DNA of 62,386 nucleotides, taken from positions 2,790,001-2,852,386 of the forward strand of contig OZ237735.1 in NCBI GenBank assembly GCA_965178125.1, in the 5' to 3' direction. Of the stretch, positions 49 through 53,545 are shown in pieces (the stretch's first letter is position 1; every line of letters starts with the position of its first letter). The notes beneath the pieces are model-generated. The model saw nothing but the letters and a program-made list of their open reading frames with translations, was not told where the DNA came from and searched no databases. The DNA comes from Bilabrum cf. latius. Its lineage: Eukaryota. The translations under genes were made by a program, and so were the position numbers.

Positions 49-942
49 ATGTCTTCTCTCTTCGACCCGGAAGAGATTGCTGCAGAAGATGAGAGGCTGC
101 CCCTTCGAATGAACGTGGATGCCTTCCGATTAGGATGTTTGGACTCGTGCTCCGCAGGCCAGGTGAGAGTGACCGACTTCAGCATGCGGCTTACGGTCTC
201 ATCATTATGCGTTTTGCATAGCATCCGGGGTGACGTAGTATTTTTGTTTATGTCGCAGGATTTAGTGGCTGGTTCATAGCTTGATCTCCCTGTTTGGCTG
301 TGCTACAAGCTGGTGCGGCTCGGGTTTGCGTCTGTCAGCATCCCGCGAGCATACGCGCACTCCACTATGGTTGATCTCACGGCTGATCCGCGCTCTGTTA
401 ATTTAAGAGATCGGTCTCCCTTTTTCTATCGGCTGATGCCTGCAGTGTGCCGGACTGTGCGTCCCGCCCACGCGGTTTCGAAGCTGCCCGACATTGTACG
501 CAAAACTCTTGCGGTTAGAGCTGAAGACATCATGACACGTGGAGGAGCTGAGGCCCCAAGTGACGTATCTGGATTTATTGATTCGCTGACGAATGAGGAG
601 CAGCTCGTTTTCCAGAAGGCGTACGGACAGGCAAGACGGGCTGCGGCTCACAACCGAGGGTACGGCAGCGAGCTGGCTGCCTCGGGGCTCGCCAGGGCAG
701 TGGCCAGCTCTGTAGGTGCAGGGGCGGGCGCGGCATCCTCTAGCGAGTAGATGGCAGCGCAGGCAGCCGCGGCTGCAGTGGCTAGCGCCTCGGTGGGAGG
801 GGCCCAGCCCGCGGGGAAAGGGGGTACCGCGCAGCCAGCCGTGAGCGGGGGTATGCTAGCCGAGGTGGCGGTGGGCCTGGATCCAATGGCGGCGCAGGCC
901 GTCCGTAGCTTTGCCGCACGCAAGCGCAGACGAATAGTGTGA
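49..942 (+). CDS. PSF3: GINS complex subunit Psf3 (intron 163-258; in-frame TAG at 277 and 748 read as sense)
   Basis: The joined translation gives FDPEEIAAEDERLP...GS*LDLPVWL...VSIPRAY...DLTADPRSVNLRDRSPFFY, matching Psf3 motifs. It has a GTGAG...GCAG intron and ends at TGA 940-942. Confidence 0.85.
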
Positions 943-1066
943 CGAACATAGAGAACTATATCTCCTGACGAGTGCGAAAGTCGCATGGCATTGATGAGGA
1001 ATGCCAGCCACCACAGCCGTGCATCATCAAATGTGATGCACACACACCCTCTTTGATCCGCCTGCC

Positions 1067-1194
1067 TCAGTGGCTCTCCCTGGGCACATCATGCCCGCTG
1101 GCCCCGTGCAAGAAGCCCAGGTCGCACCCCTCAGTGGCTCTCCCTGGGCACATCATGCCCGCTGGCCCCGTGCAAGAAGCCCAGGTCGCACCCC
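1067..1194. repeat. 64-bp exact tandem duplication of the dehydratase 3' end
   Basis: 1067-1130 and 1131-1194 are identical (TCAGTGGCTCTCCCTGGGCACATC...GGTCGCACCCC). Confidence 0.95.
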
Positions 1195-2999
1195 TCGTGC
1201 GACTGGGTCACGTTGTCCACGTACATGCGGCTGTACCCCCTGGATGCAACAGGGGCAGGGGCCTCCCACGCCTGCTTCCTCCGGGCCAGCTCCTCCTCCT
1301 CCACCTCCAGCTCAAGCTTGCCCGCCTCCACGTCCAGAGAAATCGTGTCACCGTCCCGCACCAGGGCGAGGGGCCCGCCCACCGCCGACTCGGGCGACAC
1401 GTGCAGCACCACCGTCCCGTAGGCCGTGCCCGACATGCGCCCGTCGCTGATGCGCACCATGTCAGTGATCCCCTTGCGCAGCAGCTTGGGCGGCAGGGCC
1501 ATGTTCCCCACCTCCGGCATGCCCGGGTACCCCACCGGCCCCGCCCCCTGCAGCACCAGCACGCTGTTCTCGTCCACGTCCAGGTCCTCGTCAGAGATCC
1601 TAGCTTCGAAGTCTTCCTTGCTGGAGAACACGACGGCCCTGCCGCGGTGTTTCATGAGCGAGGGGGATGCCGCGGCTGGCTTGATGATGGCCCCGTTGGG
1701 AGCCAGGTTCCCCTTCAGAACGGTTATGCCGGCGCTGCCCGACCCAAGCAGGGGGTCGCTCGCGGGTCGGATCACGTCGTCGTCATAGCACTCAGCCTCC
1801 GCCACGCTCTCCCCCATCCGCTGCCCTGATACCGTCAGTGCCTCTGGGTCGGGCAGCGCGCCCGCCTCGTGGATCCGCCTGAGCACTGCAGGCAGGCCCC
1901 CGGCATAGAAGAACTCCTCCATGAGGTGCTCCCCCGCGGGCTGCAGGTTGGCCAGCAGAGGCACCTGCCGGCCCACCCTGTCGAAGTCGTCCAGCGACAG
2001 ACTGACCCCCACCCTGCGGGCCAGGGCCAGCAGGTGCACCACCGCGTTGGTGGAGCCCCCCACAGCAGCGAGGGCGGCGATGGCGTTCTCGAAGGCCCCC
2101 TTTGTGAGAACCTGGGAGGGGCGGAGGTCGTCCCGCACCATCTCAACGGCTCTCCTGCCCGCCAGGTGAGCCAGAGTGTTTCTCCTAGAGTCCGCTGCGG
2201 GGATGGCGGCGCTGCCCGGGAGTGACATGCCCAGTGCCTCCGCCACACAGGCCATTGAGCTGGCCGTGCCCATGGTGTTGCAGTGGCCGGTGCTCCGACT
2301 GTTCCCCGCCTCTGCATCCATAAAGTCCTTCAGGCTCAGCTGTCCACCGCGCACCTGCTCAGAGAGCTTCCACACGTCCGTGCCGCTGCCCAGTTTCCTG
2401 CCCCTCCATCGCCCGTTGAGCATGGGACCACCCGTCAGCAGCAGCGTGGGCAGGTCCGTGGATGCCGCCCCCATCAGCGTGCCGGGGGTTGTCTTGTCGC
2501 AGCCCGTCAGCAGCACTGTTCCGTCAATGGGATACCCGCGCAGGCATTCCTCCGTGTCCATCGCCATGAGGTTGCGCAGCAGCATGGCTGTGGGGCGAAG
2601 CAGGCTCTCGCCGGTGGACAGCACCGGAAACTCGAGAGGCAGCCCGCCAGCTTCCCAAACGCCGCGCTTCACCCGGTCAGCAACATCCCGAAGGTGTGCA
2701 TTGCACGGAGTCAGCTCGCTCCAAGTGCTACAAATGCCAATTACTGGCCGGCCGTCGAACGCCTCATCTGGAAGACCTTGGTTGCGCATCCAGGATCTGT
2801 GGATGTAGCCGTCCCGATCCGCTTTTCCAAACCATGCATGGGATCGTCTCCATGTTTTGTCCTTTCCACTGCCCCCTTTGTCGCCGCTCCCTGATGAAAG
2901 CATCGTTGCGGTGCGGGACAGCCGACGCGTGCAAGCCTACCACTGAGCCGAGATGGCGCGCTGCAGAGCCACACGAGGAACTCTACGGATCGAATGCAT
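1131..2999 (-). CDS. IlvD/Edd-family dehydratase, L-arabinonate/sugar-acid dehydratase type, with a probable mitochondrial presequence
   Basis: Motifs RSHAWFG..DRDGYIHRSWM.NQG, RPVIGICSTWSELTPCNAH, GCDKTTPG, CNTMGTAS, RISDGRMSGTAYG and C-terminal VPRESH. Reading TAG 2937-2939 as sense extends the frame to ATG 2999 (MHSIRRVPRVALQRAISAQW*ACTRRLSR). Confidence 0.9.
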
Positions 3000-3159
3000 G
3001 TTGATAAAACCCAAGTGAGGTCAGCTGGGAATGCAGCCTCAGGGCTGTTGGTGTGCATGGGCGAGTTGCACTTTGCAGCGGATCTTGGGGGAATCTGGTG
3101 AGATGACGAGCACCTGCTATTTGCAGCGCTTGCAAAAGGTGATACAACGAGCCCGCAGT

Positions 3160-4815
3160 ATGGCTGCCGTTGCAAGTACCAGTGCGACCGGAAAGGCATG
3201 CGGTAGGCTTGATTTCATGGGTGGCGTTGCAGATTATAGCGGAAGCCATGTCCTGGAGGCCGGGATCGCAAAGTTCGCTACGTGCGAAGCTACCTTGATT
3301 GTAGGAGGAGACACGATATCATTAGAAAGCGAACACTTTGGATCGTTCTCGTGCGCAGCATCTATGCTTATTTTTACGGGAGAAGTCGAGGCAGGCACCC
3401 CCGGAGTCCGGCCCCTGGCTGCCGTGAAAGTCGGCTTAGAGGAGGTCAAAGCCCCGCGGTGGTGCCACTACGTGCTAGGCTGCGTGGCTGCATACTTGTT
3501 ACATATACCATCTGCGGCGTAGGCCGTGAGAGGTTCTGGATTGCGCCTGTCCATCGCATCCGAGGTGCCCGCAGGCCAGGGTGTCTCGAGCTCAGCCTCG
3601 CTCGAGATGGCAGTGCTGGACTGCATGCGAGCGCTTCTGCCGCCCAAGGAAGGCACCGCAGAAGAGGCAGCCGCAGCACCCCTTCGGCTCGCTCACCTGG
3701 GCCAGCTAGCAGAGAACCAGGTGGCCGGCGTGCCCTGCGGTCTCATGGACCAGTTGGCCTGCCAGTTCGGTAGACCAGGAGCGTGAGTCTACGCGCAAAA
3801 TGATTGCAACCCCCCCCTTTTGGCAGCCTGCCACACTGATTTGGCCACGCCCCTGTCCACCCCGCACTCCCGCAGCCTGCTCCCAATCAAGTGCCGCCCA
3901 GACCAGTGCTCCGTCCCAGTGGCGCTGCCCCCTGGCGTCGTGGCTCTCGGCTGGCCCTCCATGGTGGTGCACGACGTGGGGGCCAGTCCCTATGCCACCG
4001 CTCGGTGCGCGTGCTTCATGGCCAAGCGGATCCTTGAGGCTGACGTGCTGAGCAAGATTGTGCCCAGCGAAGCGCTGGATGCGACAGTGCGGGAGGAGCT
4101 GGACGAGTGGACGAGGGACAGGACGGGCAAGGCCTGGCAGCCAGGTGACCCGATCCCGCACCTGGCCTGCCTCCCGCTGAGCTGGCTGCAGCTGCACGCG
4201 CTGGGGGGAGGAGAGGGCAGGCTGCCGGATCGGATCACCGGCGCGGAATTCGCGGAGAAGTACGGTGTGACGAGTGACGCCCTCAGCAAGCCGCGGGGAG
4301 ACGCCATGTACGAGGTGGGGGCGGCCGCCGAGTTCGCGTGCGGCGAGGACGCGAGGGTGCGCTTGGCGGTGGCGCTGCTGAAGGGGCTGGCGAAGGTGGG
4401 TGTGGGGTCTGTGGGGGGTGGGGGGGGTGGGGCTGCCGCAGGTCCCTCAAGTGCTCCCGCTGCGGGGGGCACAGGTGTTGGCACTAGCGCCGGTGGGGCC
4501 GGGGGTCGGTCCGGGGAGGAACACGAGGCGCTGTGCGCGGTGGGTGAGCTAATGCTGCAGGGGCACGCGGCCTACTCGAAGATAGGGCTCGGGTGCGAGG
4601 AGACGGATCGGATCGTGGGGGCACTGATGGGAAGGTTGGGTCCCGGGCGGGGCGTGTTTGGTGCCAGGGTGAGTGGGGGAGGCAGCGGTGGGACGGTGGC
4701 CGTGCTCTGCAGGCAGGACGCGGTCCCTGCGGTGGAGGCGCTGGCCAGGAGCGAGGGCTTGCGGTTTGGGGAGGCAGGAAAAGACCCAAGCAAGTTTCCT
4801 GGGCTGATTTTGTAA
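3160..4815 (+). CDS. GHMP-family sugar kinase, L-arabinokinase/galactokinase-like (intron 3783-3875; TAG at 3520)
   Basis: GRLDFMGGVADYSGS, SEVPAGQGVSSSASLE, ENQVAGVPCGLMDQ and GARVSGGGSGG closely follow the plant ARA1-type kinase domain. Ends at TAA. Confidence 0.85.
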
Positions 4816-4973: not shown

Positions 4974-6045
4974 ATGTCAGCCGCAACTGACATCGAAGTT
5001 GGCCTTGATAATACAGTCGCTATCCTTGCGGTTTCGCCGGAGCTGAATGAGTTGCTCATGAGAGCCAAAGCAATCTACGCGAACCTTGGCGGGAAGGTCG
5101 CTGCAACATCAATGGAGAGCGCCAAATCATTTGACGGAAAGAGGCTTATCGTAGTTGCTCAGATGCGCGCCCTTGATCGGGTAAGTTTTGAGCGCGGCAG
5201 CCCCGTTATGCGGCAATAGGCCCACGCCTTGCACCAATCACAACAACGGCATTTTCTTGTATGATTCTCTCGTGCAGTTGCTGGACACCAGGAATATGTC
5301 AGGAATTGAAAGGATGCACAAGATAAGAATTAATAACTAGTGCCGTCGACAGCTGAATGACATCTAGTAGTGCATTGTCGAGCTAGTGAAGGTCCACCAC
5401 AATGAGCTGAAATCCAAGGCAGGCGTCTCCGACGAGGAGCGCGTCGCGAGATAGCAAGCATTCAAGGACATGCAAACCGAGCTATCAGATTTGAAAGACA
5501 AGCTGTCGGGGGTGCAGCGACGACGGGGCGGTGGCGGGGCCGGCGGAGCCGTCGAGATGCAAGATGTGACAGGCTTCATCAACGGCAAGTCTGGGTCAGG
5601 GTCGGGAGGCGGAGCTGCTAGCGGGGCAGGCTCCGGCGGTGGGTTCAATGGAGAGGGGGGCTCTGGAGGCGGAGGGTTCGGCGGCAGCGGCTCAAACACG
5701 GTGGAGGAGGACTTAACGCAGACTCAGATTCAGGAGATCGGGGAGCTTGATGCGATCCGGGTTAAGCAGGACGAGCTGCTGGAGGAGATCGGCAAAGAGG
5801 CCGACATTTTGTTGGAGCAGGCACTCGGTTTCAAGGACGAGATGGACAAGCAGGACGCGCTGATCGGCGACCTGGAGAAGAAGATCAGCAAGGCCAGCGA
5901 CAAGCTCAAAAAAGTCAACGATCAGGCGGACAGGGCCGTGGAAATGGTCAACGCGCCGTCCACCAGCCTCTGCATGTATGCGATCTGCTTCATCGTGTTG
6001 CTGGGAATCGTCACGGTGGGGTACAACGTGATCAACAGCAACTGA
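4974..6045 (+). CDS. Qc-SNARE/syntaxin, SYP7-like (intron 5181-5277; TAG at 5338, 5365, 5368, 5452)
   Basis: C-terminal SNARE heptad (QDELLEEIGKEADIL...EMDKQDALIGDLE) plus a C-terminal TM helix. The N-terminal helical region is continuous only if TAG is sense. Confidence 0.75.
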
Positions 6046-6189
6046 TGGGGGGGATTGATGTGCAGGTGTCGTCAAGTCGAGCGCAACAATGCCGTTGCTT
6101 CTCTGTGTACGGGTGTACCCCAGCAATCACGCCTAATGGCATCCAATTCACAGTGCCACAGGCTTGATCTAGAGTGCCTGTAATCGCCT

Positions 6190-7728
6190 ATGCATGCTAA
6201 TGCTGCCACCAGGCCCTTGCAGTCTCACCCGGAGCCTAAAACACGAAACATTACCCGCGCCAGAATCGCGATGCTGCGGGGTGTTCGGATTCTTGACTTG
6301 ACTAGGGTATTGGCTGGTCCATATGCAACACAAATGCTCGCCAGCATGGGGGCTGAAGTTATAAAAGTTGAGCATGTATCGAGAGGAGATGAGACGCGAG
6401 ATTGGGGCCCTCCTTTCATTGCGTCAGCCTCCGGAAAGAGCCGTCTGTCGTCATATTTTGCCGGAGTCAACGCTGGAAAATATGGAATTGGAATAGATTT
6501 CAAGCATCCGCGGGGCAGACATGCTGTATTGGAACTTGCAAGACGCAGTGATGCCGTGGTAGAGAATTTCCCGGCTGGCACCCTTGACAAAGCTGGCGTG
6601 GGGGCAGTCGCGATGGTAGACAAGAATCCCGACCTTATAGTTGCTTCCATTACAGGTTATGGGCTTACTGGGTCGAAACGGACGCAGGCGGCGTATGACG
6701 TAGCCGTTCAAGCGGAGTCGGGGCACATGTCGATTACTGGAAGTTACAGCGAGGCCAGTGACACAAAATTGAACGCAGAAGAAGTTTTCAAGCACGGGGT
6801 CGCAACAATTGACGTGATGACCGGTTTACACGCTCAGAATGCAGTCCTGGCGGCACTGCTCGACGTGCAAACTCGCCGAGCAGCGCTCGGGCTGCCTCTG
6901 CGAGCTTCCCAGCGCTGGCAGGCCGCGAAGAGTAACTGTGAAGCTGGATCCTCGCCGGCGCTAACCAAGCCAGAGTTTGCGTTTGTAGGCAGGCAGCTGG
7001 ATGTCCCCCTGCTGGACACTGCTCTGCATGCCCTGGTGAATGTTGCCGCTAGCAGCCTCAACTCCGGCCCCCCTGCGCGGAGGTGGGGTTCCGCACACGC
7101 TTCCATTGTGCCCTACTAGGCCCTGCAGACCGACGACGGGCCCGTTGTGGTGGTGGCCATGAACGACGCGCAGTTCCAGTAGCTGTGCACCGAGGTGCTC
7201 GGGGGGTCCTGCTAGAATTTGCACTTGTCTCCACTCTACCGGTCCAACCCGCTGCGGGTGGAGCACCGGGTGTCTCTCCTGGACCTCATCCAAGCTCGCA
7301 TGCAGGAAAAAGGGGGCACCCAGGCCGAGTGGGTGGACCGCATGAAGCGGGCGGGACTGGCAGGCAGCGCCGTCTCCACGGTGGAGGAGGCGCTGAGTAG
7401 CAACCACGCGAGGGAGCGAGACATCGTGCAAGAGGTGCAGCGGACGTGGCCCCCTCCATCGGATGGGGGGCCACCCGACCAGCCTTCGACCATCAAGACC
7501 GTCGCGCCGCCCATTCGCGCGTCAAAGGTGACTCGCGGCGTGCGCTCAGGCGGGGCCGAAGGCACCGTGACGCTCACCAGTGACCCAGACGCTTGCAAGG
7601 TGCGTGGAGCCCCGCCACTGCTGGGAGAGCACACGCGAAAGGTGCTGGTAGGCTGGGGCGTGCTGGATGACGGGGCGGTGGACGACGGGTGCAGGGAGGG
7701 GTGGCTGCGCGAGACTGCGGGCCTCTGA
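6190..7728 (+). CDS. CaiB/BaiF family III CoA-transferase (SUGCT-like); TAG at 7117, 7180, 7213
   Basis: LRGVRILDLTRVLAGPYATQML..MGAEVIKVE, GDETRDWGPP, HASIVPY*ALQTDDG and PPLLGEHTRKVL. The start may be 6190 or 6271. Confidence 0.9.
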
Positions 7729-9891: not shown

Positions 9892-10098
9892 GTCATGCGG
9901 GTGTTGTAAACTGTTTGTATTCGACACAAAATTGCGAAATAAAAGGAGTCGAGCACGACCCAATTGTAGCGAATAGTTTAGCAGTTGCAGTCTTGAATAA
10001 TGGCCGGAAGCTTCAACGCGAACTTGACAGCATTCCGCAAGCACACAATCAAACTAGGGTCTAACTAGTAGTTAGCTACCTTTAATAGCTGATTTACC

Positions 10099-11931
10099 AT
10101 GTCTGGTCTGCGTTCCATATCCCAGGAAGCCCGTGAATCAGAGATTTCGCAAGCTGCCGAATCGCAGCTTAGCGGGCCGGCACCTCCGGTTGCATTGATC
10201 GATGAGGGGGCTACAGCTTGGATTCTAGCATCCACTTCGCTGGTGCTGCTAATGTCACTCCCTGGACTGGCCGTGTTCTACGGTGGTTTTGTGCGAAGCA
10301 AGAACGTACTCAGCGTTTTGGCTCAATCGTTGGGCATCACGGCACTTTCCACGGTTTTGTGGATCGCAGTGGGCTACTCCTTGGCTTTTACGCACGGAGG
10401 ACCAGTGCACAGCGTTATTGGTGGCTTCAAGCACATATTTCTTATCGGTGTTGGACAGAACACCATGGTGGGGCCTATGGGCGGCAACGCACCGGTACCG
10501 CTAGTTGCTCATGCCGCTTACCAAGGGTCGTATGCTTTCCTGGCTCCAGCACTCTTTCTTGGCTCAGTGGTGGAGCGGATGCGATCTCGTGTGGTTCTCA
10601 TCTTTGGTGCAGTGTTTCTGATCGTGGTGTACTGCCCCATCGCTCACATGCTCTGGTGCCCCGGCGGATTCCTCCGCGAGTGGGGCGTGCTGGACTGGGC
10701 GGGCGGGCTGGTGGTCGGTACTACTGCCGGAGTGGCTGGATTGATTGCCAGCCTGATGGTGGGCCCTCGCAAGGGCTATCCCGAGAACGTGTTTCGCCCC
10801 CACAACACCACGCTCATCGTCCTGGGCACCGGCATGCTGTGGACAGGGTGGATGGGCTTCGAGGCAGGCACGGGCCTGCACGCGGACGGTGTGGCGGCCA
10901 TGGCCCTGATGACCACCCACAGCGCGGGCGCATTCGGCGCTTTGACGTGGACTGGTATCGAGTGGCTGCTGCACCACGGGCGGCCCTCCATCCTGGGCTT
11001 CTGCGCGGGGGCCGTGGCTGGGCTGGCTGCCATCACGCCTGCAGCGGGGTACGTGGGCGTGGGGGGCTCTGCCGTGATCGGCATCGTGGGCTCCTGCACG
11101 TGTTACTTCATGGCAGTTGCCGTGAAGGAGTGGGCGGGCTGGGACGAGACCCTGGACGCGTTCGGGGTGCACGCCACCGGGGGCATGACCGGGACCCTGC
11201 TCGTGGCGATCTTTGCGAGTCCCCGGGCTGGGGGCTCTGGGGGCAATCCCGAGGTGCAGGCAGCCGAGGACTTCAGCATGGGCCCTCAGCTGCTCAAGCA
11301 GGTGACTGCGACGGTCTTTGTGGTGCTCTACTCTGCCATTGTGTCGTGGCTGCTGCTGCTTGCTTTGGGCAAGTGCTGGGGCCTGCGGGTGAGCGCCGCA
11401 GTGGAGGAGAAGGGGCTGGACCTTGCCGAGCTGGATGACGGGGCCTACCTCTTCGGCTCCCACCATTGGGAGGGCAAGGCATTCGTGACCGACACCGCCA
11501 CCAGTGCCGCCCGCATGGTCGAACAGGCAGGGGAGAACGCACTCGAGACGCTCAGCGAGTCAGGAGACCTGGAGAGGGGCCAGCGGAGCCCAAGGAGCAG
11601 CCATGGAGGAGGCACCCGTGGCGCCGGAGGGTGGGGCGACCTGATGGGGGAATGGGGCGACGGTGATATGCGGCGCAGGGGCGCGGGGGGCAGTGGTGAT
11701 GAGCCCGGGCGCAAGCACTCTGCCCTCGAGAGCTTGCTGCAGCAGGAAGCGGACGATAAAATCAAGCAGTAGAGGGGCATGGGGGGGCGCGTGGCCGGTG
11801 CCATGGTGGGCGGGCAAGGAGGGGGGCGGGGTCTTCGGCCCGGGGGGTCGATCCAGAGGGGCAGGAGCGGGTCGGACCATGACGTGAGGACTGCCGTGTC
11901 GCTGCCTCCCCTCCGGGGGTCCATCGGGTGA
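10099..11931 (+). CDS. AMT: Ammonium transporter (Amt/Mep family), atypical pore residues
   Basis: PGLAVFYGGFVRSKNVLS, LDWAGG, GAVAGLAAITPAAG, DETLDAFGVH and LRVS...EEKGLD. Reading TAG 11770 as sense extends the C-terminal tail to TGA 11929-11931. Confidence 0.92.
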
Positions 11932-17489: not shown

Positions 17490-17664
17490 ATGCCACCGGC
17501 GGCTTTGGATCAAATGGATGGATTGACTCTCCCACTCGCAGATCCACCGACGATTCTAATTCTCGCCACACATATTTCCTGGTATGCCTACTGCGCCTGC
17601 TGGCTCCAGCTCCGATATTTTCGCATTCGCAGCCATCGCGGTTGCATCTACCGTAGGTCTAGGG

Positions 17665-33739: not shown

Positions 33740-33829
33740 ATGGCGAGATACTTTTGCTTTTTGGCAATGTTTGAGTATTGCTGGTAGTTTGGGCATTACT
33801 AGCCGGATTCCGGATCCGCACAAGAGCTT

Positions 33830-41492: not shown

Positions 41493-41617
41493 GACGACAA
41501 AATGGCCAGCAGGTCTATGTAGGTGGCTCCCGCGATGGACATTATCATCATCTGATGGTGATTCCGGATATTGGCAGCTGCCTTCGAAACAATGAGCTAC
41601 ATCTCGAATACTGATCC

Positions 41618-42313: not shown

Positions 42314-43288
42314 TCAAGCCTGGACCTTCCTGCGCCTGGCTCTGCTACTCGGCCTTGCTCGCTTGGTTCTCGTGAAGGTGACCTCCTCGCTGCTGCTGCT
42401 GCTGCTGGGGCTAGGGCTGGGACTGCCTGACCCTGCATCATCGGTCGCATCATCATTTGCGTCTTGCAGTGAATCCTCTGTGGTCTGCAGGCCTTGAATG
42501 CCCAGAGATGCTCCCACGGGGGCAGATGCCAGCCCGAGCTTCCATGCGATGGGCCCGGAGAAGGTGGCAAGTGCAGGGATCACGATGACTGCAATGCACA
42601 CACACAGCGAAGCGATGAGCTAGACATCGTGCGACCTATCCCCAGTCACCCACTCGCGGAGAGACAGACGGTCCCCCAGCTGCTGCCTCAGGTACCACGC
42701 GCTGAACCCCGCCTAGGCCCCAACCATGCCGAAGAATGCGGGACCGTACGACAGGAGAACCCCGACGGCAAGACGACCTTCGAAGTGCGCTTTAGTGTAC
42801 ACCCGGAGCAGGTCGAGCTCAAGCAGAGGCAGGTCGTAGACGCAGCCAGCCACGCCAACAACCACCGACCCGAAGGCTACCATCATGCCCGGCGACTGCA
42901 GCAGCGCACTGCTCTCCAACTGGTCCAGCAGAGGAGTGTCGGCTGAACCGACTCCCGCAATGTACCTGATGCCGATCGCCAACGCCCCCAATACAACGCC
43001 TCCGTACAGAAACCCGACTTGCGGCACAACACCCTCCACCAACGGAGTGCACGACGGGTTGAACTGCCACAGCTTCAACCACCCAGCACCCAGACCTACG
43101 ACAATATACATACCAATTATAAGTGCTGCAGATGTTGCAGATGCCCATAGCGGCACGCTCCGGAGCTAGCCATCGGGAGCTAGCACAACGCCGCACGTCA
43201 AGCCGCCGGCGATTGGGAGTGCGTAAAACCACAGAAGATCGATGGCAAGCCTCCAATTGCGCGAAGGAATGATCACTCGTGGAGCCAT
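42314..43288 (-). CDS. Hypothetical multi-pass membrane protein; TAG at 43166, 42713
   Basis: Three hydrophobic ORFs in one frame are joined by TAG and end at TGA. Confidence 0.6.
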
Positions 43289-43420
43289 ACTTTGCAGACC
43301 GGTCAATTGTACTGCAGTCTTCGAACCAATTGCTTCTTGACGGGCCGAGTGGCTGGCGGTAATTGCAGCCCATTGTGAAGCACCGCCGGCCGACCTCTTA
43401 TTGAAAAGCAACCCATCCCG

Positions 43421-44074
43421 ATGTTTCGCTCATCGGTGCTGATCTGTATTGTCGCTGGTATGGTAGGCTCGGTGTTGGCGACGAGAAATCCGAAGGGCTT
43501 GATGGCAAGGGAGCTTTTTGCGTTCCTGCCGGGGAGGGCAACTGAAGTCTGCCGAATATCAAGCACAGGTCGGTCCTGCTCCGGTTCGACCGTCTTGCAA
43601 AAACCTGGTGATTACTTGCTGATCGCAATAGAAGTTCCGGACTCCATTCTGTCCTTTGAAATTCAAGATGCTGACGGCTTAGGCGGCTTCAGCTTGATTG
43701 CAGTCAACCGCACAGGTCTGGCGATTTTTCAGGATCCTTATGCGAACCAGTTGTCGTTTTATCCTACATTTAGTTGCCAACCGGCGAAGAACGGGATGGC
43801 TGCGCTCCTCAAGTGCGAGCAGAGCGGTCGGCACCTAGTGGATCGAGGTGCTCCCATTCCGTTCTATCTAGTGGCCCAGACTTTGATTGGGAACAATGCG
43901 TTGACATTTAGTACATCATATATGTCTCCATCGCCGGCTCCAAAGCAAGACGAGCAGGTCTCTGGGAGTCGATCCATGTCAAGCCAAGGACGTATCGAAT
44001 ATTTGTGGAGTATTGGCGTGGCAGCTGCCAGCAGTCTCTTTGTGTGGGGCAGACAAAACGCTCACATGGGCTGA
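43421..44074 (+). CDS. Hypothetical secreted/surface-anchored protein
   Basis: Signal-peptide-like N-terminus, Ser/Pro linker and a hydrophobic C-terminus. Confidence 0.6.
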   Translation: MFRSSVLICIVAGMVGSVLATRNPKGLMARELFAFLPGRATEVCRISSTGRSCSGSTVLQKPGDYLLIAIEVPDSILSFEIQDADGLGGFSLIAVNRTGLAIFQDPYANQLSFYPTFSCQPAKNGMAALLKCEQSGRHLVDRGAPIPFYLVAQTLIGNNALTFSTSYMSPSPAPKQDEQVSGSRSMSSQGRIEYLWSIGVAAASSLFVWGRQNAHMG

Positions 44075-44305: not shown

Positions 44306-45083
44306 AAATTCCCGGGGTTGTCGGCCCGAAAATGACAACCTGACGGGTGCCTGACAGCAGTAATCTCGAGGGCCTCCCTAGGCTGGCCACCGTGGGAATG
44401 GGGAGTATAGATGAGGAGGAAGAGGATGAGGATGAGGAGATCGGCAGCAGGAGGAGGAGGAGGCAAGCCAGTGGCAGACAGTCGTCCGCGAGCGAGCATG
44501 ACACTCTGGTGCAAGTGGATGATCAGCTACCTACGGAGCCGGATAACTCGGGCAACCTGGATGCCACGAGGGAGTTCGCCCTGGCGGTGAATGGGTAGAG
44601 GGGAAGCCGCGGCCCGGCCAGGGAAGGACTGGCCAGACCGGTGGCAAGCGCAGTCGCGAGGCAGACGCCAAGGCCAACAGGCAGGGCACGGCTTCCGAGT
44701 CCGCCGAAGAGGAGCCGCTAGCTTAGAAGAAGAATTGATTCCTATACGAGAGGCCTTCTCCAGAGCTTGAACTGGACCCGTGAAATGAGCGCCCAGTTGG
44801 GCGCAGGAGCTGTGGAAGCCATACCGAAAGTTGATGGACTTGACGAGTTTGGCGTCACCTGGATGGTCCATCGTCAGAGCGGTGCATACTGAACGGAATC
44901 AAGGCGCGTATGTGAAGTACGTTGGTCGTGCTCTGCTCGCTGCGAACAGACCCCCGCGAGGGGGATGGACAAGGGGGTGGCAAAGCAGCTGCGGCCCGCA
45001 CTGCTGGCAGTACTAGATCTATCTAGATCTAGTAGCAGCGCGCTCGATTCTAAACCCACACGTTACTGGTCAGTAAAGCTGTT

Positions 45084-45154
45084 TGCACCGTCGCCCCCGA
45101 GGGGGTTTGGGTGATCTAGGTGATCACCCAAACCCCCTCGGGGGCGACGGTGCA
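45084..45154. repeat. Perfect 33-bp inverted repeat with a 5-nt loop
   Basis: TGCACCGTCGCCCCCGAGGGGGTTTGGGTGATC-TAGGT-GATCACCCAAACCCCCTCGGGGGCGACGGTGCA. Confidence 0.95.
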
Positions 45155-45269
45155 TCTGCCAGTGGGTGCTTACGGAATCTTTACCCAACAATGTATTTCT
45201 GTATTTCTGTATTGTTTTTCTTTATTCACTCGTGCGCACAACGGTCGCATCAACCTCAGATCTGCAGCA

Positions 45270-46925
45270 ATGCGATCAATCGTTTCTGTTTTGGTAGCTG
45301 TCGCGGCCTGTTCGGCGCTCAGTGCACACGGGCGACGAGCGGCAGGCCAGCAGCACCTCCGCAGCGCTAGCTCCACGTCGTCAGCCTCGGTCCACGCTAG
45401 CAGCAGGCGCCATGGGCGCGATGCATGGCCTGCAAGTGAGAACGATGAGAAACTTGACACGTTCTCCTGCGACGTGAGCGCCTTGGCAGCGAGGAAGCCG
45501 GCATAGGGCGACAGGCTCCGGAAAGGCGAGATTCTGCATTCCGCCATCGCTCCGCTCGGTAATGCCTTGTCAAAGGAGTCGACGATGGTGTGGCTCCGGG
45601 CTGACTGCCACTTGATTGTCAATGGCAAGCTGGAGGCAGAATTTTAGGCCTCGGGTGACCCCGAGGAGCAGTCCGACCACTGCGCGCTGCTTCTGACGGA
45701 TGCGTCGTGCAGCACGCAGGGAGACCTGGCCATCATCGACACGGATACGGGCAAGTACCTCTGGCGGGTGCAATCCTCTATCTTCACACCCGAGGTGGAC
45801 ACGTTTCTGGCCCAGGGGGACGGCAATGCCGTTCTCCTTCAGGAAGGCGCGCAGCTGCTGTGGAGCACCGGGGAGAAGAAGGTGGGGGGGACGTTCCACT
45901 TCGACCTGGAGGTGCGGGACGACGTGCACAGGTTGCAGTGCGATGCAGGGACCATGCACTCGTCATACCACAAAGTGACCAACGGCGACGTGCTGTCTCC
46001 GGGGCAGGTGCTGCAAGCTGGGGCCGCCTTGAAGACGAGCGGGGTCGAGCTGCGCATGCAGGGAGACTGCAACCTGGTGGTGTACCAAGTGGGCAAGGCA
46101 GTATTTGCGACCAACACGAAGGGCAAGGGTACCGAGGGGAAGTGCGCACTCGTCATCACGGGGGACGGGTGCGACACCCAGGGCGACCTGGCCATCCTAG
46201 ACAGCGCCTCCGGGCAGTACATCTGGCGGGTGCCTGCCTCGCTGATGGACCCGGGTGCAGACACCCTTCGACTGCAGGGGGACGGGAATGCCGTCCTGTT
46301 CCAGAAGGGAGGTGAGATCGTGTGGTCGGCGGGGTCGGCGGACTTGGATGGTCCTGACGACGACGAGACCTTCGGCAATGGTTGCAAGAAGGCGGCACTA
46401 CAGGCGGCCATCGAAGCGGCTCCTCGCTGCAACCCCCAGGCGCTTGCTAAGCGACCGGCCGCCAAGGGGGACTCTCTTTGGGACGATGAGGTGCTGGCCA
46501 TGGGGCATAGGCTCCGGGCGGGGGACATGGGCTATGCCTTTCTGACGGTGGCGGACAACTGCGACCTGGTGGAGACGAACGGGGTGGGCAAAACCACCTG
46601 GAAGACGGATACCGGAGGCAAGGCCCAGAAATGCGCGCTCGTCATCACGGGGAAGGAGTGCGACCGCACGGGAGATCTTGCTCTCGTCGACATGGACAGC
46701 GGGGCGTACCTGTGGAGCATCGACACATCCTACGTGCGGCCCACGGCCAAGGTGCTGAAGAAAAGGAATTCCTTCTCGGTTCTGGGACAGCAGGCCACGT
46801 TCTCAAACATCTGGTATTCGTAGGGCATGAATCTCTTCGCTTCTTTGCAGCCTCCTGAGGGAGAGTTTGAATCCGAGTTCGAGAAGGAGCTCACTTATTG
46901 GAAGGAGTCCCAGGATAAGTGTTGA
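45270..46925 (+). CDS. Secreted protein with three bulb-type (GNA-like/B-lectin) domains; TAG at 45504, 45645, 46821
   Basis: Signal peptide MRSIVSVLVAVAACSALSA. Repeats with MQGDCNLVVY, LQGDGNAVLF (QxDxNxVxY-like) and CALVITG..C...GDLA..D..SG.Y.W. Ends at TGA 46923-46925. Confidence 0.8.
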
Positions 46926-47304: not shown

Positions 47305-47608
47305 TTTGTGGAGTATTGGCGTGGCAGCTGCCAGCCGTCTCTTTGTGTGGTGCAGACAAAACGCTCACACGGGCTGAAATGGAGCAGTGGGGTGCAATGC
47401 ATCGGGCACACAGGCGCGCAGCCTGAGGTCACCCAAGCTCTGCTACCATGTCTGCACCACTGGCAGGGGCCTACAAGCTGGCATGGGGAGCGGCTCCACT
47501 ACCAGTGGCTGCAGTCGACGGAGGGCGATACAGCTGACTGTATTGCTGCAGGGCTGCGGCCACAGCAGGAAGTTTTGATGCAGCAGCGATCGCACGAGAC
47601 CAACATTG
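47305..47608 (+). repeat. 304-bp direct repeat, copy 2 (contains the EED stop codon)
   Basis: Near-identical to 44002-44305. Confidence 0.95.
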
Positions 47609-49621
47609 CAGCCGCAAGCCAGTGGCCCCGGGGGGTACCACCACATTTTTGGAAGCATAGCCTGTGGGCTTTGGTCCTTGCCCGGGGTGGCCCGATGCGA
47701 GGCTGGCAGCGGATGCTGGTCCTTGACCGTCCTCGGCGCCACCTGCCTCCTCGGCTGCCATGTCATACCGGACCAGGATGCCCTTGTCGCAAGCAGCCAC
47801 CAGAGTGCGACCATCCGAGCTGATGGCCACCTACCGCACGGGCAAGTCTCTTGACCTCGGGTGGGTCAGCACCTGCCAGGGACGCCTGTGCCGCGGGCCT
47901 GAGGGACGGCTCCGATCTGGGCCGGAAAATGTTGCTGCAGCGCTGCTTGAGGCCACCCGGCGCTCCGACGATATGCCGGCCCCTCGCGCCGAGGAGGACA
48001 AGGATGAGGAAGAGCCACCCGCCCCGGATGATGAGGGCTGGCCACCTTTGCGCCTAGCTGCGCCACGGGATGAAGACAACGCACCTGCGCCGGTATCATT
48101 GCCGTTTGCGTCACGGCTGGCACCATTTGCAGTGGATGCAAGCCGCAGCCCGTCGCACTGCAGCACCGAGGCAGACCTGCCGCTGGACTTGCGCCCGTCC
48201 CCGTCTCTGTGCAGCTCTCCCGTGTAGGACCGGGTCAGGATGGAGCCCACGTCCCGGGGCCGCCAGACGGCCACGGCTCCCTTGGAAGTCCCCGCGGCCA
48301 GAACCGAAGCATCTGGCGCAGCCGCCATGCGCAGGTACCAGATGTCGAGGTCCTTGCAGTGCAGCTGTTGCACCACGGTAATGCCACCGGATGTGAGGGC
48401 CTGAGCCTGCTGCCGCCCCGCCGCCCTGAAGTCAGCAAAGGCATTCTACGCCTCATCCAGGCCGCCGGGAAGGTCGTTCCCGGTTGCAGAGTAGATCTTG
48501 GTCTCTCCGGGCCCCTTGTCGCTGGCCAGCGACGACTCGTCCGATGTGTCGCTGTCCCCCCCCGCCCGGTCCGATTCTCTCACGGCGCTCGTGAGATCGC
48601 TAGGAGAGCCCTCCAGCAGCGACACACCCGCCGAGTGGGCAGCGGATCCAGCATCCGGGGTCCATAGCACCACGTCGTTGGAGGTGGACTTGCTCGCGAT
48701 CATGGATCCGAGGAAGACCACCGAGTCGGCATAGTCTGCGTGCACATCGTCCGTGGAGAAGGCCGGCAGCTGCTCGTGCAGCGGTGTGTGGGCGCCCTCG
48801 GAGCGAGCGTGCTTCTAGTAGCTGCGACTGATGGCTCCAACCACCTCGGGGGAGTCCAATGCCCAGAGCTTGACAGAATTGTCCATGCCTGCCGACGCGA
48901 AGCACCTGCCTGCCGGGTGCACGCTCAGGGCCAGCACGTCGTCCCGGTGGCCGGCCTGCCCCGCGAACATGGCCACCAGCTGACCCGTCATCAAGTTCCA
49001 CAATCGCACGGACTCGTCCTGGCTTGCAGAAAGCATGAGGGATGGATCAGCGGGGTGAACCTGCAGGTCGTTGACGGCCCCCCCATGCCCGCGCAGCACG
49101 CCCACGTATGACCCGCGGGAGGTATTGAGCACTTTGATTAGACCACGGAGACCAGCCATTGCTAGAAGTGGCTCGCCAGTGTTCTAGTCTTCTGTCCATC
49201 GACAGCAATAAAACATTTCTTTCTCATCCTAATCCTTGTATGTCTGCCGTAGCTGTAGCTCAAATCCTGGCGCGCCACGAGCAACATACAGGCTCACGTG
49301 CCGGCCTCCGACAACTGCAAGACCTTGTGCAGCAGGAGATCCAGCAGGGCCGAACGATGCACCGTACAAATCCTACTTGTGGCGTTCTTCAACCAGTGAT
49401 GAAAACACAAAGCCACTAGCAGGCAGCTTGGGGCGCCCACCAAGTTCTTTTGGGAGACTTTGGCATGCGTGCACCCATTCCGGTGTTCCGAATCTAATTG
49501 ATCCATCTAGCTTGATTGGATCTACACCTAGCCGCGCGCATTCAGCATCAATTCGAGAGCGAACCTCGGGAAGTCCAGCCAGTCCAGGCGGCAGGTCAAG
49601 GGGTCCCATCATTGAATCCAT
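47429..49621 (-). CDS. EED: Polycomb PRC2 WD40 subunit EED/ESC/FIE
   Basis: EMFYCCRW...PLLAMAGLRGLIKV, GHGGAVNDL..HP, LSASQDESVRLWN, FAG.AGHRDDVL, SAGMDNSVKLW, HADYADSV..LG.MIASKS, DIWYLR and VR*VA.S.DG. One frame across seven TAGs. Confidence 0.9.
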
Positions 49622-49715
49622 CCTGACGCTCCTTGCGCTTCTTCGTCAGGCAGTACACATATTAGTCTGTTTCTGTCCACATTCGGAGGCGACAAAACAA
49701 GTGTAGGGCATAAAC

Positions 49716-49769: not shown

Positions 49770-49822
49770 CTTCAACTGCAACTCTGCGAGATTTTAGCCA
49801 GACCTGAGCATTTTTCCCCACA

Positions 49823-52800
49823 ATGTCACGCTCATTTTCAGCATTGAAGCCTAAATTATCGTCTGAGTCGATTAGGGCTGTAAATTCCCTTGGATTCTCG
49901 CAGTGCACGCCGGTGCAGAATGCAACTATACCCCTCTTTCTTAAGAAGAAGGACGTTGTCGCAGAGGCGGTAACGGGTTCCGGGAAAACCCTGGCGTTCT
50001 TATTGCCAATGCTTGACTTGATTCAGCAGGCAGCAAGGAAAGCTGTAGCCGAAGGAGACTCGCTAGTAGCGAACCGAGTGCTAGGGATGGTCGTGTCCCC
50101 AACACGCGAACTTGCTGCACAAACACACAAAGTTATGCAGGAAATTTTGCCATTCTATTTCCATGGGGCCTCTGGGTAGAGCATATTGAAGTCAACCCTG
50201 CTTGTTGGGGGTACAGACGTGGATGAGTCCATCCGGGAGTGCGTGCAAGATGGCTGTCACGTGGTTGTTTGCACGCCTGGGCGAGTCCTAGATATGCTGG
50301 ACAGGAAGTACAAGCCATTGTTAATGAAACAATCGAGCGATAGAAATGCTGGTGATAGCTCCAGCTAGGGATCAAGCGAAGCTAGTGTCCTGCAGGTGCA
50401 GTCTCTGCAAGTCCTCGTCATGGACGAAGCCGACATGCTGCTCGAGCTGGGGTTCGAGCGAGCCATGGGCCGCCTATTGGAGCAGCTCCCCAAGTCCCGA
50501 GTCACCGCGCTCTTTTCTGCGACCCAAACGAAGGAAGTGCGCGCCCTGGCCATGGCGGGCATGCTGGACCCAGTGGCCGTGAGAGTGAGGGTCGCAGCCC
50601 CCAAACAAGCTGCCGACGGGGAGCAGAAACGCGGGAGTGCGCCGCTAGACAGTGCACAAGCTTCGTCTTCGTCTGGTTCATCAGCACCTGGTACAGCCTC
50701 TTCTGCATCGAGCAGCGCCATGCCGACTGGGTCCATGCGGTTGCCCACCCGACTAGCTTGCTACTCTGTGCGCTGCCCAGCCGCTTCCAAAATGGGCGCC
50801 CTCGTGTCACTGCTCAGACGATGCTTTGCAGTATCCACAAAGAGCGGAAGTACAGCGCAGGCACACGGATTGACTCCCCGCGCCCCGAAGCTCATCGTGT
50901 TTGCTCTCACGTGTGCCACGGTCGAGTACCTGGCCCGGGTGCTGGCGGCACCTGTGTATGCTCAGAACTTGCAGGGACTGTCAGAGGCGCTGCGACGGAC
51001 TGCATCAGGCCGGGTTGTAATGAGCGGTGCTGCACAGAGTGCTTCGAGCAGCTCCAGCGGGGCATCAGGGACTGGCAGTCCTTCTACCGCGCACGCACCG
51101 ACCGCGGTGCAGCGATACGTGGCAGAGTGGGCGCTTGCTGCCCCGCGGCAGGCCACGAAGCACTGGCGCACCAAGTCAGCATCTTCGAGTGCAGGCGCAG
51201 GATCTGTACCAAGCAACTCGTCGAGCACTACGTCAGCCTAGCAGACAGCTGGTCTACCCGATCAACCTTGGAGAACGTTTCCACTGCTAGCGCTCCACGG
51301 CAAGATGCCGCAGAAGAAGCGGAGGGCGGTGCTGGACGCATTTCGAGCAGCACCTGCGGGCGTGCTCGTGTGCACCGACGTTGCAGCCAGGGGTCTGGAT
51401 GTACCGGATGTAGACTGTGTGGTGCAGCTCGACGCCCCGAAGGAGGTGGATACATACGTGCACCGTGTGGGCAGGGCAGCACGAGCGGGTCGATCTGGGT
51501 CTGCGTGCATCCTGCTGTCTCCGACAGAGCGGGACTTCGAAGAGCTCCTGAGGCTCAAGGGGCTGCCCGTGCAGACCTTGGACGGTATTGACCCTTCTGC
51601 ACTGGCACCTGGCGTGCTGCCACAGCTCGATGAGGATACTTTAGAAGCTGAGACAGCCCAGTGCGCTGCTGCGTGGAGACACCTGGCTGCCTCAGATCGA
51701 GCCGTGCTGGAAGCTGGCAGCAATGCGGTGCTGGCTCATCTGCGGGGGTACAGCGAGCACATTCAGAAGCTGGCACTTCCTTTCAGCAAACTTGACATTG
51801 CTGGCATCTGCAGGAGCTGGGGCTTGCTCAAGTCGCCCAACGTCAAAGAGACGAGAGGTATGCCACCCAAGCAGAAGGACTGGTGGGCGGACCCAGCCGA
51901 GGTGGATCTGCCCGCGCTGTCAGCAAAAAAAGATGATGCTGTTGCAGAGCAATCAAAGCAGAGGCGGAAGCACAAAAAGGGCAAAAAGTCGGGGAAACAG
52001 CCGCCAAAGCCGCGTGGACCGGTGTACCGCTGGCCTGTGCCGGACACCTCAGTGGTGCGTTTCTTGGACCCCGAGAGAGAGGCAGCCCGCCAGCTGCGGC
52101 TGTAGAAGGAAGCAGAGCGCACGGCTGAGGTGGCTGCCAAGCTAGGCATCATGGGAGCCAGCTCTGGGGCCTCTGTCCCGAAGATGTCGGGGAAGGGTGA
52201 GAGGGCGATGGCAGCTGCAGCCAAGCAGCAGGCCATGCGAGCCAAGGCGGAGCACGAAGCGGAGTAGGTTGCCAAAGGGAAGGCGCTGGGGCGAAAGCGT
52301 AAGGGGCAGCAGCAACGCCTGTTCGAGGAGTGGGACGAGCTGGCGGACGAGAGCAGGCTGCTGCGCAAGCTCAAGAGGGGGGAGATCACTGACGAACAGT
52401 TCGACGAGCTGACGGGGGGAGGGCCTGCGGCTTCCGGTGCGGGGGCGGGGATGGAAGAGTCTGTTGGTGGCACGGATAGCAGTGCAGGAGGGGAGGTGGA
52501 CGAGGACTTGCCGTCGGCCAAGCGGCGTCGAGTGGAGGGGGGCGGGGGCCCAGCTTTAGCAAGCAGCGGCGGGTCACGAGCGGGCTCCAGCAGGAGCGCA
52601 CTGCTGGCGGCAGTCAAGGCTACGGTGCTTGGAGGCAAGCATGCGAGCAAGGCAGCAGCCCTGCAGAGTCAAGGGCAGTCTTCCGCTGACGGCAGCGCGG
52701 GTGGGGTGGTGCAGCGCCTGCACGAACAGCACAGGCGGCAGAAGAGGCATGCTTCGAAGTCTACCAGAAAGGTTCGGGCAGTGCGAAAGGCGAAGCGAAA

Positions 52801-52840
52801 CAGCTAGCAAAGCTAGGGGGGGCGTGGTAAGAAACGCTAA
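49823..52840 (+). CDS. DDX55: DEAD-box RNA helicase DDX55/Spb4
   Basis: GFSQCTPVQ..TIPLFL.KKDVVAEAVTGSGKTLAF, SPTRELA, TPGR, DEAD, FSATQT, LHGKMPQKKR, TDVAARGLD and HRVGRAAR. Seven in-frame TAGs; ends GGRGKKR-TAA. Confidence 0.9.
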
Positions 52841-52885
52841 AACTGATGCGTGTACCAGATATTTTGCAGCAATCACGACTGCAGG

Positions 52886-53545
52886 TCAGCGTTCGCGCCG
52901 TCCACGACCTCCTTTCGTGCCTTGTCCTTTTCTCCTTCCAGATGATCCCACTCGCCACGTGCCTTTGCGAGTAAACTATCGCCAAAACTTCTTCGCTTCT
53001 TCGTAGGGGATCCTCTGCGGCAACGTCGCGCCGACTATACTACAGATCGCATCCTAGTCTGCTTCAGAGAACCTCAGGTGCGCATCCTCAATTAATGGGT
53101 ACAGTCGCGGGGGGGTCGAGGCGTGTATATTAATAACCTGAAGTATTTCGTGGTCTGCAAGGGCTAGCACCCGCTACCTAGCCGAAGTCGACTGCGTCTC
53201 GCTTGTCTCGGACCGAATCGGACTTGGTCCGGCGGCATCTTTAAGCGGTGAGCTAGCTCCTTCATCGCCATCAGCAGCAGAAGTCCTTCCACCTCGAAAA
53301 TCTTGCAATGCCTTCACAGCTCGGGCAGCATCTGGTGTCTTCACTGCATTGCTTGAAGTTTGCGAAACGTACTTCAACACACTTTTCTCGAGCCACCGAA
53401 CTGCTCCAGGCGGGTCAGGAACCCCCAGTCTTCCACCACGCTACTAAAAGGTACCTGCAGATTCTTGCAGGCTTGCTTTCTCCCTCAGAAACTCTGCCAC
53501 TTCGCAATTGAGCATGCGCCCTGCATTGTCATCAAGGCAACTCAT
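52886..53545 (-). CDS. RPC9: RNA polymerase III subunit RPC9/C17 (RPB4 family); five in-frame TAGs
   Basis: With TAG as sense: MSCLDDNAGRMLNCEVAEFLRE...WLEKSVLKYVSQT...LADHEILQVIN......LYPLIED...RFSE..*DAI..IV, which follows the RPC9/CRCP pattern. Confidence 0.7.

Follow-up and report, generated by a model that had tools for sequence, protein, structure and literature searches.

The 62,386-bp stretch of DNA analysed here (the window; ~60% GC) raises the question of what TAG means in its genes, most of which are split by TAG into pieces that continue in the same reading frame. An initial annotation had proposed a nonstandard nuclear code in which UAG specifies glutamine while UAA and UGA remain stops. 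We conclude, with a probability of about 0.85, that the nuclear code of this organism reads UAG as Gln and keeps UGA as its main and UAA as its minor stop, which is the pattern of NCBI translation table 15. The assignment of TAG as a Gln codon is supported by orthologues in close relatives, by a syntenic metagenome contig, by conserved columns of distant protein families, and by transcripts that keep TAG. The window itself is best explained as the end of a nuclear chromosome from a microbial eukaryote whose genome is GC-rich and dense in genes. The first 53.7 kb of the window carry densely packed eukaryotic nuclear genes recognized with Pfam, and these genes are compact and mostly intron-less, with introns of ~90 nt bounded by GT..AG.

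In-frame TAG, TAA, and TGA

Stop triplets were counted in 22 homology-supported frames that represent 21 genes and 14,869 codons. These frames contain 82 in-frame TAG, no TAA, and no TGA, compared to 232 TAG, 91 TAA, and 542 TGA in the remaining two frames of the same DNA. The in-frame density of TAG is ~70% of its off-frame density, and TGA, the commonest stop triplet, does not occur in frame. At least one TAG is present in 20 of the 21 genes, and none of the 21 needs TAG as a terminator. TAG makes up 82 of the 83 internal breaks, although TGA is the commonest off-frame stop triplet. By our own tally, 26 TAGs have homology on both sides (to Pfam domains, PDB entries, or relatives). TAG amounts to 12% of Gln codons (TAG/CAG ratio, 0.18), and CAA is used 147 times in frame. 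Over both strands and regardless of frame, TAA is the rarest stop triplet (345 TAA vs 746 TAG).

When only TAA and TGA are taken as stops, the open reading frame (ORF) pieces fuse to frames of 1891, 1826, 1516, 1010, 936, 758, 738, and 636 amino acids. The fused frames hold complete Pfam domains, including pyruvate kinase, the kinesin motor, DEAD/Helicase_C/CTE_SPB4, CoA_transf_3, ILVD_EDD, Ammonium_transp, WD40/EED, and INCENP_ARK-bind. Pfam domains run complete across TAGs, and none is interrupted by TAA or TGA. ORF length was dropped as a test; taking TGA as sense gave 70 ORFs of at least 300 amino acids compared to 51 for TAG as sense, and length is not decisive, because TGA-as-sense also lengthens random frames in GC-rich DNA.

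These counts bear out the proposed splitting of genes by TAG, and the five positions that had been singled out (kinesin 27048, CoA-transferase 7117, EED 49373 and 47831, and INCENP 20120) are all in-frame TAGs. The accompanying tally of 24 gene models, 21 ending in TGA and 3 in TAA, kept its preponderance of TGA and changed in its numbers, to 22 frames with 20 terminal TGA and 2 terminal TAA. The suggestion that the few other breaks fit short introns agrees with the GHMP kinase gene, whose sole same-frame TGA (3784-3786), one of the 20 counted as terminal, lies inside an inferred intron of 93 nt (3783-3875, GTGAGT..CAG).

Glutamine at TAG positions in close relatives

Close relatives were represented by ORF fragments in a protein collection, 84-99% identical to the window proteins and cut at standard-code stops. 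At all six window TAGs spanned by relatives that are at least 84% identical, the relatives have Gln. These are residue 326 of pyruvate kinase (PK326), residues 435, 533, and 704 of the Zn(2)-Cys(6) cluster (Zn2Cys6) protein, and residues 400 and 605 of the EED homologue. PK326 (TAG 25261) is Gln in the 99% identical fragments P0004 and P0005 and is encoded by CAG in the contig L001 described below; the Zn2Cys6 positions (TAG 36053, 36347, and 36860) are Gln in relatives' fragments, and the EED positions (TAG 48446 and 47831) are Gln in relative P0150. Moreover, the ends of six of the relatives' fragments coincide exactly with a window TAG, and protein conservation extends to either side of it. 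Zn2Cys6 fragments end at TAG 35456, 36779, 37628, 39062, and 39659, and the relatives' pyruvate kinase fragments end at the TGA of the window pyruvate kinase gene.

A metagenome contig of 5,946 bp and 54% GC (L001) carries INCENP, YbjQ, and pyruvate kinase in the same order as the window. Its pyruvate kinase is 79% identical to that of the window, and the comparison is far from trivial, because the codons differ at 210 of the 358 identical residues. In 1,325 codons, L001 contains 14 in-frame TAG, no TAA, and no TGA. Within well-aligned blocks, 10 positions pair a TAG in one sequence with a sense codon in the other, and the sense codon is CAG or CAA in 8 of them; at one further position both sequences have TAG. 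In pyruvate kinase, one L001 TAG occupies the place of the conserved Gln in the motif KIENxQG. In INCENP, window TAG 21911 and 20324 pair with CAA and TAG 21875 pairs with ACC, and two window CAG codons pair with TAG in L001. Low-complexity INCENP positions, where local identity is ≤0.25, gave D, T, Q, G, S, Q, and H and were excluded from these counts. The presence of in-frame TAG in a contig of 54% GC implies that the code is older than the GC difference between the window and L001. The variant code is common to several relatives of differing divergence, which fall into at least three tiers of protein identity (~99%, 84-95%, and 71-79%).

Glutamine at TAG positions in distant families

Distant homologues place Gln at several of the same positions. 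CoA-transferase TAG 7117 (SIVPY-X) aligns with Gln in all four PDB alignments printed, which represent three distinct proteins, and TAG 7180 aligns with I, T, T, and K. Kinesin TAG 27048 (FGPDAS-X) aligns with Gln in KIF20A, in a second kinesin-like protein, and in KIF3B (3/3). Human EED has Gln at two of five aligned TAGs (49373 and 47831) and A, S, and D at the others. From 150 matches to EED, 12 EED-sized orthologues were chosen, the rest being long multi-WD40 proteins and three relatives; Gln occurs in 5/12 at residue 91 (TAG 49373) and in 6/10 at residue 605 (TAG 47831), and residues 154 and 277 are variable columns. One search for homologues of the EED frame gave 21 proteins, all of them generic WD40 and none an EED. 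For pyruvate kinase, 105 of 118 homologues were kept, and 13 longer than 760 amino acids were dropped. In PDB alignments of the DDX55-like helicase, the TAGs fall in unalignable loops.

Summed as log-odds over nine columns of these distant families, Gln scored +3.2 bits, Ser -6.5, and Glu -6.6, which places Gln ~10 bits ahead of any other residue. This sum left out PK133 and PK134, which fall in a loop and are gapped in 71 and 83 of the 105 homologues, and CoA-transferase TAG 7213, which is unalignable. Taken with the relatives (6/6 sites) and L001 (8/10 pairs), the log-odds agree with the proposed assignment of UAG to Gln. The narrower claim that TAG falls on conserved Gln positions holds for kinesin, CoA-transferase, and EED and does not extend to every TAG, as the Arg at PK326 (101/105) and the Glu at EED139 (9/12) illustrate.

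TAG in coding sequence and in transcripts

Coding signal was scored as a codon-usage log-ratio (LLR), with the scored gene left out of the reference each time. LLR values of gene bodies are 0.07-0.35, and the 59 segments of at least 30 codons that follow a TAG average 0.25, with 6 of the 59 below 0.1. By comparison, values after terminal stops are mostly -0.47 to 0.17, that is, about zero or negative. Tails past the last TAG are coding-like (positive LLR) in 18 of 20 genes, and TAGs occupy all deciles of gene length.

We also asked whether TAG persists in independent reads. Four runs (X4-X7, from 14 listed; three studies) were aligned to 33600-53500. X4 has a flat depth of ~40 and unspliced contigs. 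Runs X5-X7, which come from the two studies other than that of X4, contain two GT..AG joints that are absent from X4 (41737->41830 and 41898/9->41989/90); their depth varies gene by gene (8 to 137 in X5), and their contigs start as well as stop near gene borders. Because of the spliced joints and uneven depth, X5-X7 were taken as containing cDNA. The eight genes of this stretch have 51 in-frame TAGs, of which 41 lie in the pieces listed for X5-X7 and 47 in those of X4, in both cases with zero differences from the window. A single X5 contig spans 35999-40464 in the Zn2Cys6 region with 0 differences. These results support the conclusion that UAG stays in transcripts and is neither edited nor spliced out. 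Editing, splicing, and assembly error are disfavoured, because zero-difference contigs, including those of spliced runs, carry TAG.

Two checks that had been proposed for the UAG = Gln code are answered by these data. TAGs are unedited and unspliced at 41 of 51 sites, in runs whose cDNA nature we infer, and the alternative of C-to-T read errors is countered by the same bases at TAGs in four runs from three studies.

UGA and UAA as terminators

Nineteen of the 21 genes end in TGA and two in TAA. With no TGA in frame, the evidence supports UGA as the main stop and not as sense. The case for UAA as a minor stop rather than a sense codon is good, not overwhelming, and thinner than that for UGA. 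If TAA were sense and used at the TAG/CAG ratio of 0.18, ~26 in-frame TAA would be expected, and 0 were observed. In the GHMP kinase gene, the alignment with the PDB homologue 9ulx starts at the first residues past the intron and stops 3 residues short of the TAA, and the 75 codons past the TAA are non-coding-like (LLR -0.15). Runs upstream of frame-opening TAA likewise score about 0 or below. The proposal that UGA and UAA both remain stops is upheld for UGA and, on thinner support, for UAA (no in-frame TAA against 147 CAA, and two gene ends); in-frame TAA, which had been named as a finding that would speak against the proposal, was found neither in the 14,869 codons of the window nor in the 1,325 of L001.

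Alternative readings of UAG

Several observations weigh against a code in which UAG is Gln and both UGA and UAA are stops. Because the frames were delimited by TAA and TGA stops, some of the absence of these triplets in frame follows from the definition itself, a point that the complete Pfam domains answer only partly. ARAGORN found no tRNA genes in the window, and none in L001 either. Library types of the runs were only guessed by the tool, which marked X5 'probably DNA'. Ahead of the last TAG, the frame has an LLR of -0.08 in the cyclophilin gene and 0.00 in the ILVD gene, and some TAGs, such as the three in the cyclophilin gene, may lie in a 5' leader instead of the coding sequence. The two remaining L001 pairs are GAC (Asp) and ACC (Thr), and P0167, a 71% identical relative, has Val at EED277 (TAG 48815), in a variable column. 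EED139 (TAG 49229) is Glu in 9 of 12 orthologues, and at PK326 the 105 distant homologues have Arg (101) or Lys (4). These last two columns would fit a reading of UAG as some other amino acid (Glu, Ser, Lys, Leu, Tyr, or Trp), and UAG = Glu, UAG = Leu, and UAG = Ser do occur in other lineages, according to the available text of PMC11687900. However, Gln at 6/6 sites in relatives, at 8/10 L001 pairs, and at conserved positions of kinesin, CoA-transferase, and EED, with the next residue ~10 bits behind, makes another residue very improbable. At PK326, sequence comparison indicates that the clade has replaced a conserved basic residue by Gln, given as TAG here and as Gln in three relatives.

An ambiguous UAG, which would be sense inside genes and a terminator in some contexts, as in Condylostoma or Blastocrithidia, or which would be partially suppressed, could account for the short or non-coding-like stretches that follow the final TAG in the Rpb4-like (29 codons, LLR -0.33), DDX55-like (7 codons), and Zn2Cys6 (94 codons, LLR 0.05) genes; in the first two, occasional termination at TAG is possible. 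We regard ambiguity as unlikely, since coding-like codon usage is seen in 18 of the 20 tails, the distribution of TAGs along genes is even, and TGA and TAA are in use as stops. Moreover, the last 15 codons of all genes contain two TAGs, both in the DDX55-like gene, where ~1.7 are expected by chance, and the 15 TAGs of a single gene could not be passed by partial suppression. A code of the table 6 type, in which UAG and UAA are both Gln, UAA is rare through high GC, and UGA is the sole stop, ranks slightly above ambiguity and is still improbable. It would fit the rarity of TAA among stop triplets overall and the fact that only two genes end in TAA, one of which, the DDX55-like helicase gene, has a TGA one codon further on. 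On the other hand, the expected ~26 in-frame TAA are missing from 14,869 codons that contain 147 CAA and 82 TAG, no Pfam domain is cut at TAA, L001 has 0 TAA against 14 TAG, and the GHMP kinase homologue alignment ends near the TAA, after which codon usage is non-coding-like, as it is upstream of frame-opening TAAs. Finally, untranslated TAGs, whether from pseudogenes, assembly or C-to-T errors, RNA editing, or splicing, have in their favour that TAG is one transition from CAG, as deamination errors would give, and nothing else. This explanation is barely credible in view of the same bases in four runs from three studies, the spliced contigs that keep TAGs, the TAG positions kept in relatives with conserved flanking protein, and the 82 of 83 internal breaks that are TAG. 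The table-15-type reading, with UAG as Gln and UGA and UAA as stops, is the one adopted below.

Possible mechanism of the reassignment

Known codes suggest how the reassignment might work. A tRNA-Gln with anticodon CUA would pair with UAG and not with UAA, and it would lie one base away from tRNA-Gln(CUG). The available text of PMC5304391 states that CUA is the sole anticodon able to read UAG and spare UAA, and that a single change separates it from tRNA-Gln(CUG). The release factor eRF1 would have lost or weakened its recognition of UAG; for both UAG-only taxa studied, the same text describes eRF1 changes of possible significance, including T32G in Iotanema (PMC5304391). Under UAG = Gln, C-to-T changes between CAG and TAG would be synonymous. 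eRF1 was not among the Pfam families of the window frames scanned, in a general Pfam scan and not a genome-wide search, and an Rfam scan of the window found no RNA families.

Relation to known codes

Ciliate telomeres consist of G4T2 or G4T4 repeats, and Iotanema is an anaerobic metamonad. The window differs from table-15-type taxa in its ~60% GC, its TTAGGG ends, its compact genes, and its ~90-nt GT..AG introns. In the available text of PMC11687900, UAG = Gln with UAA as stop is listed for Iotanema spirale, Protocruzia tuzeti, Hartmannula sinica, and Trochilia petrani. The fornicate I. spirale, P. tuzeti, and the phyllopharyngeans H. sinica and T. petrani share with the window the same Gln assignment, the uncoupling of UAG from UAA, and no indication of a dual meaning in the accessible parts of the two papers (PMC5304391, PMC11687900). 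In H. sinica, T. petrani, and the TARA ciliates (UAG = Leu), >92% of C-terminal alignments fall on UAA, as far as the available text of PMC11687900 gives it, whereas UGA ends 19 of the 21 genes here.

Codes in which both UAA and UAG (UAR) are Gln, as in many ciliates, Hexamita, Streblomastix, ulvophyte green algae, and Amoeboaphelidium protococcarum, involve the same change from stop to Gln, presumably via mutated tRNA-Gln genes, but UAA is sense there and does not occur in 14,869 codons here. Amoeboaphelidium is reported to use UAR = Gln, with genomes of 40% GC in the accessible text of PMC10608142, as opposed to ~60% GC in the window. An aphelid origin, which was considered from the Zn2Cys6 domain and the algae-associated runs, was rejected because of these 40% GC genomes (PMC10608142); the pyruvate kinase homologue matches contained no named Amoeboaphelidium protein. 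The rhizarian exLh and the TARA ciliates (UAG = Leu), Scotinosphaera (Ser), and ciliate PL0344 (UAG = Glu, UAA = Lys) likewise split UAG from UAA, but with a different amino acid. The crAss-like and Lak phages of 'genetic code 15' have the same TAG = Gln, via a suppressor tRNA-Gln(CUA); however, they are viral, their recoding is partly stage-specific, and their host uses the standard code, whereas the window is part of a nuclear genome with telomeres, spliceosomal introns, and housekeeping genes.

Placement of the organism was approached with a single-gene tree of the 105 pyruvate kinase homologues. The window grouped with one Symbiodinium sp. KB8 record and other sequences (support 0.95), and this group was nested in a 25-leaf clade with the labyrinthulomycete Mucochytrium quahogii (support 0.985). 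The tree gives a weak lead toward a stramenopile-alveolate-rhizarian (SAR), perhaps stramenopile, affinity. Atlas matches for placement consisted of bacterial IlvD clusters and generic kinesins only.

Most likely, then, the window records a genuine table-15-type nuclear code, of a kind already known, that is common to a small clade, and the uncoupling of UAG = Gln from UAA possibly arose there independently. Our literature search, with most subscription journals and supplements outside it, found no GC-rich non-ciliate with UAG = Gln and a UAA stop besides Iotanema. We lean slightly toward the stronger view that this is an undescribed lineage in which UAG = Gln, uncoupled from UAA, arose independently. 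It would then be the first such origin beyond ciliates and metamonads, and the first GC-rich case with UGA as the main stop. If this is true, the order of tRNA-Gln(CUA) gain, eRF1 change, and spread of CAG-to-TAG changes could be reconstructed within one clade, for which DNA runs and runs with spliced transcripts are available. Since the code is common to several relatives, the steps of reassignment can be dated. Changes of the nuclear code are rare, splits between UAG and UAA number only a handful, and they bear on why eRF1 usually couples the two codons. A GC-rich, UGA-terminating genome is mutationally unlike the AT-rich, UAA-terminating ciliates, and new TAGs that arise from CAG by C-to-T change run counter to the GC bias. 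Standard gene callers break these proteins at each TAG, the protein collection has fragments only, and annotation of this organism or of its metagenome relatives calls for table 15.

Gene content of the window

The genes are given here in order along the window; all of those with a stated TAG count end in TGA, apart from the GHMP kinase and DDX55-like helicase genes. The first frame (1..942, +; 2 TAG at 277 and 748) is Psf3/GINS-like, with Pfam PSF3_N and Sld5 both below cut-off, and is open at the 5' end of the window. An IlvD/Edd-family dehydratase gene (1131..3020, -) has one TAG at residue 28, in the N-terminal leader, and matches ILVD_EDD_N over 1-315/316 and ILV_EDD_C over 1-191/191. The GHMP kinase gene (3019..4815, +; GHMP_kinases_N and _C) has exons at ~3019-3782 and 3876-4815, a TAG at 3520, and its TAA stop at 4813-4815. 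It is followed by a gene for a coiled-coil, C-terminally anchored protein of no family (5185..6045, +; 4 TAG) and by the family III CoA-transferase gene (6184..7728, +; TAG 7117, 7180, and 7213; CoA_transf_3). The ammonium transporter gene (10093..11931, +; Ammonium_transp 1-399/399) has one TAG in its C-terminal tail, and the part after that TAG has an LLR of 0.14. Next come genes for an 1826-amino-acid protein of no known family (12009..17489, +; 4 TAG) and for an enzyme dependent on pyridoxal phosphate (PLP; Pfam PALP; 17560..19185, +), with 2 TAG near the N-terminus.

The INCENP-like gene (19280..22090, -; INCENP_ARK-bind) has 7 TAG (21911, 21875, 21248, 21134, 21041, 20324, and 20120). 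Between it and the pyruvate kinase gene in gene order lies YbjQ, the only gene of the 21 without TAG. The pyruvate kinase gene (24286..26196, +; PK and PK_C) has TAG at 24682, 24685, and 25261. The kinesin gene (26487..31037, +; Kinesin 1-327/327), whose closest solved structure is KIF20A, has a TAG within the motor domain (27048) and another at 29742. It is followed by genes for a PUB/UBX protein (31463..33739, +; 1 TAG), a pinin/SDK-like protein (33830..34759, -; 6 TAG), the Zn2Cys6 protein of 1891 codons (34751..40426, +; 15 TAG; Zn_clus), and cyclophilin (40557..41681, -; Pro_isomerase), whose 3 TAG are all upstream of the domain.

Beyond a small spliced gene (~41615-42159, +), described below, lie genes for a multi-pass membrane protein of no family (42314..43429, -; 3 TAG), a bulb-lectin-like repeat protein (45054..46925, +; 4 TAG; weak B_lectin match), and the homologue of EED, the PRC2 WD40 subunit (47429..49645, -; human EED, E=2e-59), with 7 TAG (49373, 49229, 49184, 48815, 48446, 47831, and 47471). 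The last two are the Spb4/DDX55-type DEAD-box helicase gene (49808..52840, +; 7 TAG; DEAD, Helicase_C, and CTE_SPB4), which ends in TAA (52838-52840), and the Rpb4-like gene (52886..53605, -; 6 TAG), with RNA_pol_Rpb4 below cut-off.

Other features of the window

Besides L001, the pyruvate kinase search returned short metagenome contigs (L045, L052, L053, L055, L056, L058, L059, and L061-L064), many labelled human gut, that match only the initial 53 to 140 residues of the query, at 55-67% identity. By comparison, identity is 27-42% in the full-length matches (L002 and below). Pyruvate kinase exons from a different eukaryote may account for the short contigs.

In the last 8.6 kb of the window, TTAGGG blocks and 155-bp repeats form a subtelomeric mosaic. 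At 53818-62386, a 55-bp repeat occurs six times and is followed by (TTAGGG)69, and then by six units of ~1397 bp, each made of four 155-bp repeats and ~700 bp of pure TTAGGG. The window stops inside one such ~1397-bp repeat/TTAGGG block, and the G-rich strand runs 5' to 3' outward, the orientation of a right chromosome terminus. The recurring interstitial telomere blocks could be real or an effect of long-read assembly.

The small spliced gene has introns at 41738-41829 and 41900-41989 (GT..AG), and its product of ~120 amino acids has one hydrophobic segment. An identification as COX16 was dropped with zero Pfam matches. Its contig continues across the adjoining minus-strand gene for the membrane protein. 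The lectin-like region (44888-46879) has a depth of 1267-3778 in the DNA-like run X4, compared to ~40 in its flanks. Many variant contigs and joints occur there in all four runs, and the region is apparently abundant in the RNA-like runs also; the lectin-like gene looks like a member of a large multi-copy gene family or a repeat.

Inside the Zn2Cys6 gene, a GC-rich dinucleotide-type repeat (35903-35998) encodes an alternating Ala-Gly run, at which the contigs of all runs break. The contigs of the convergent Zn2Cys6 (+) and cyclophilin (-) genes share 14 nt at their 3' ends (40451-40464), and their depths in X5 differ tenfold (11.6 vs 136.6). This arrangement at 40451-40464 suggests very short 3' untranslated regions and tight gene packing.

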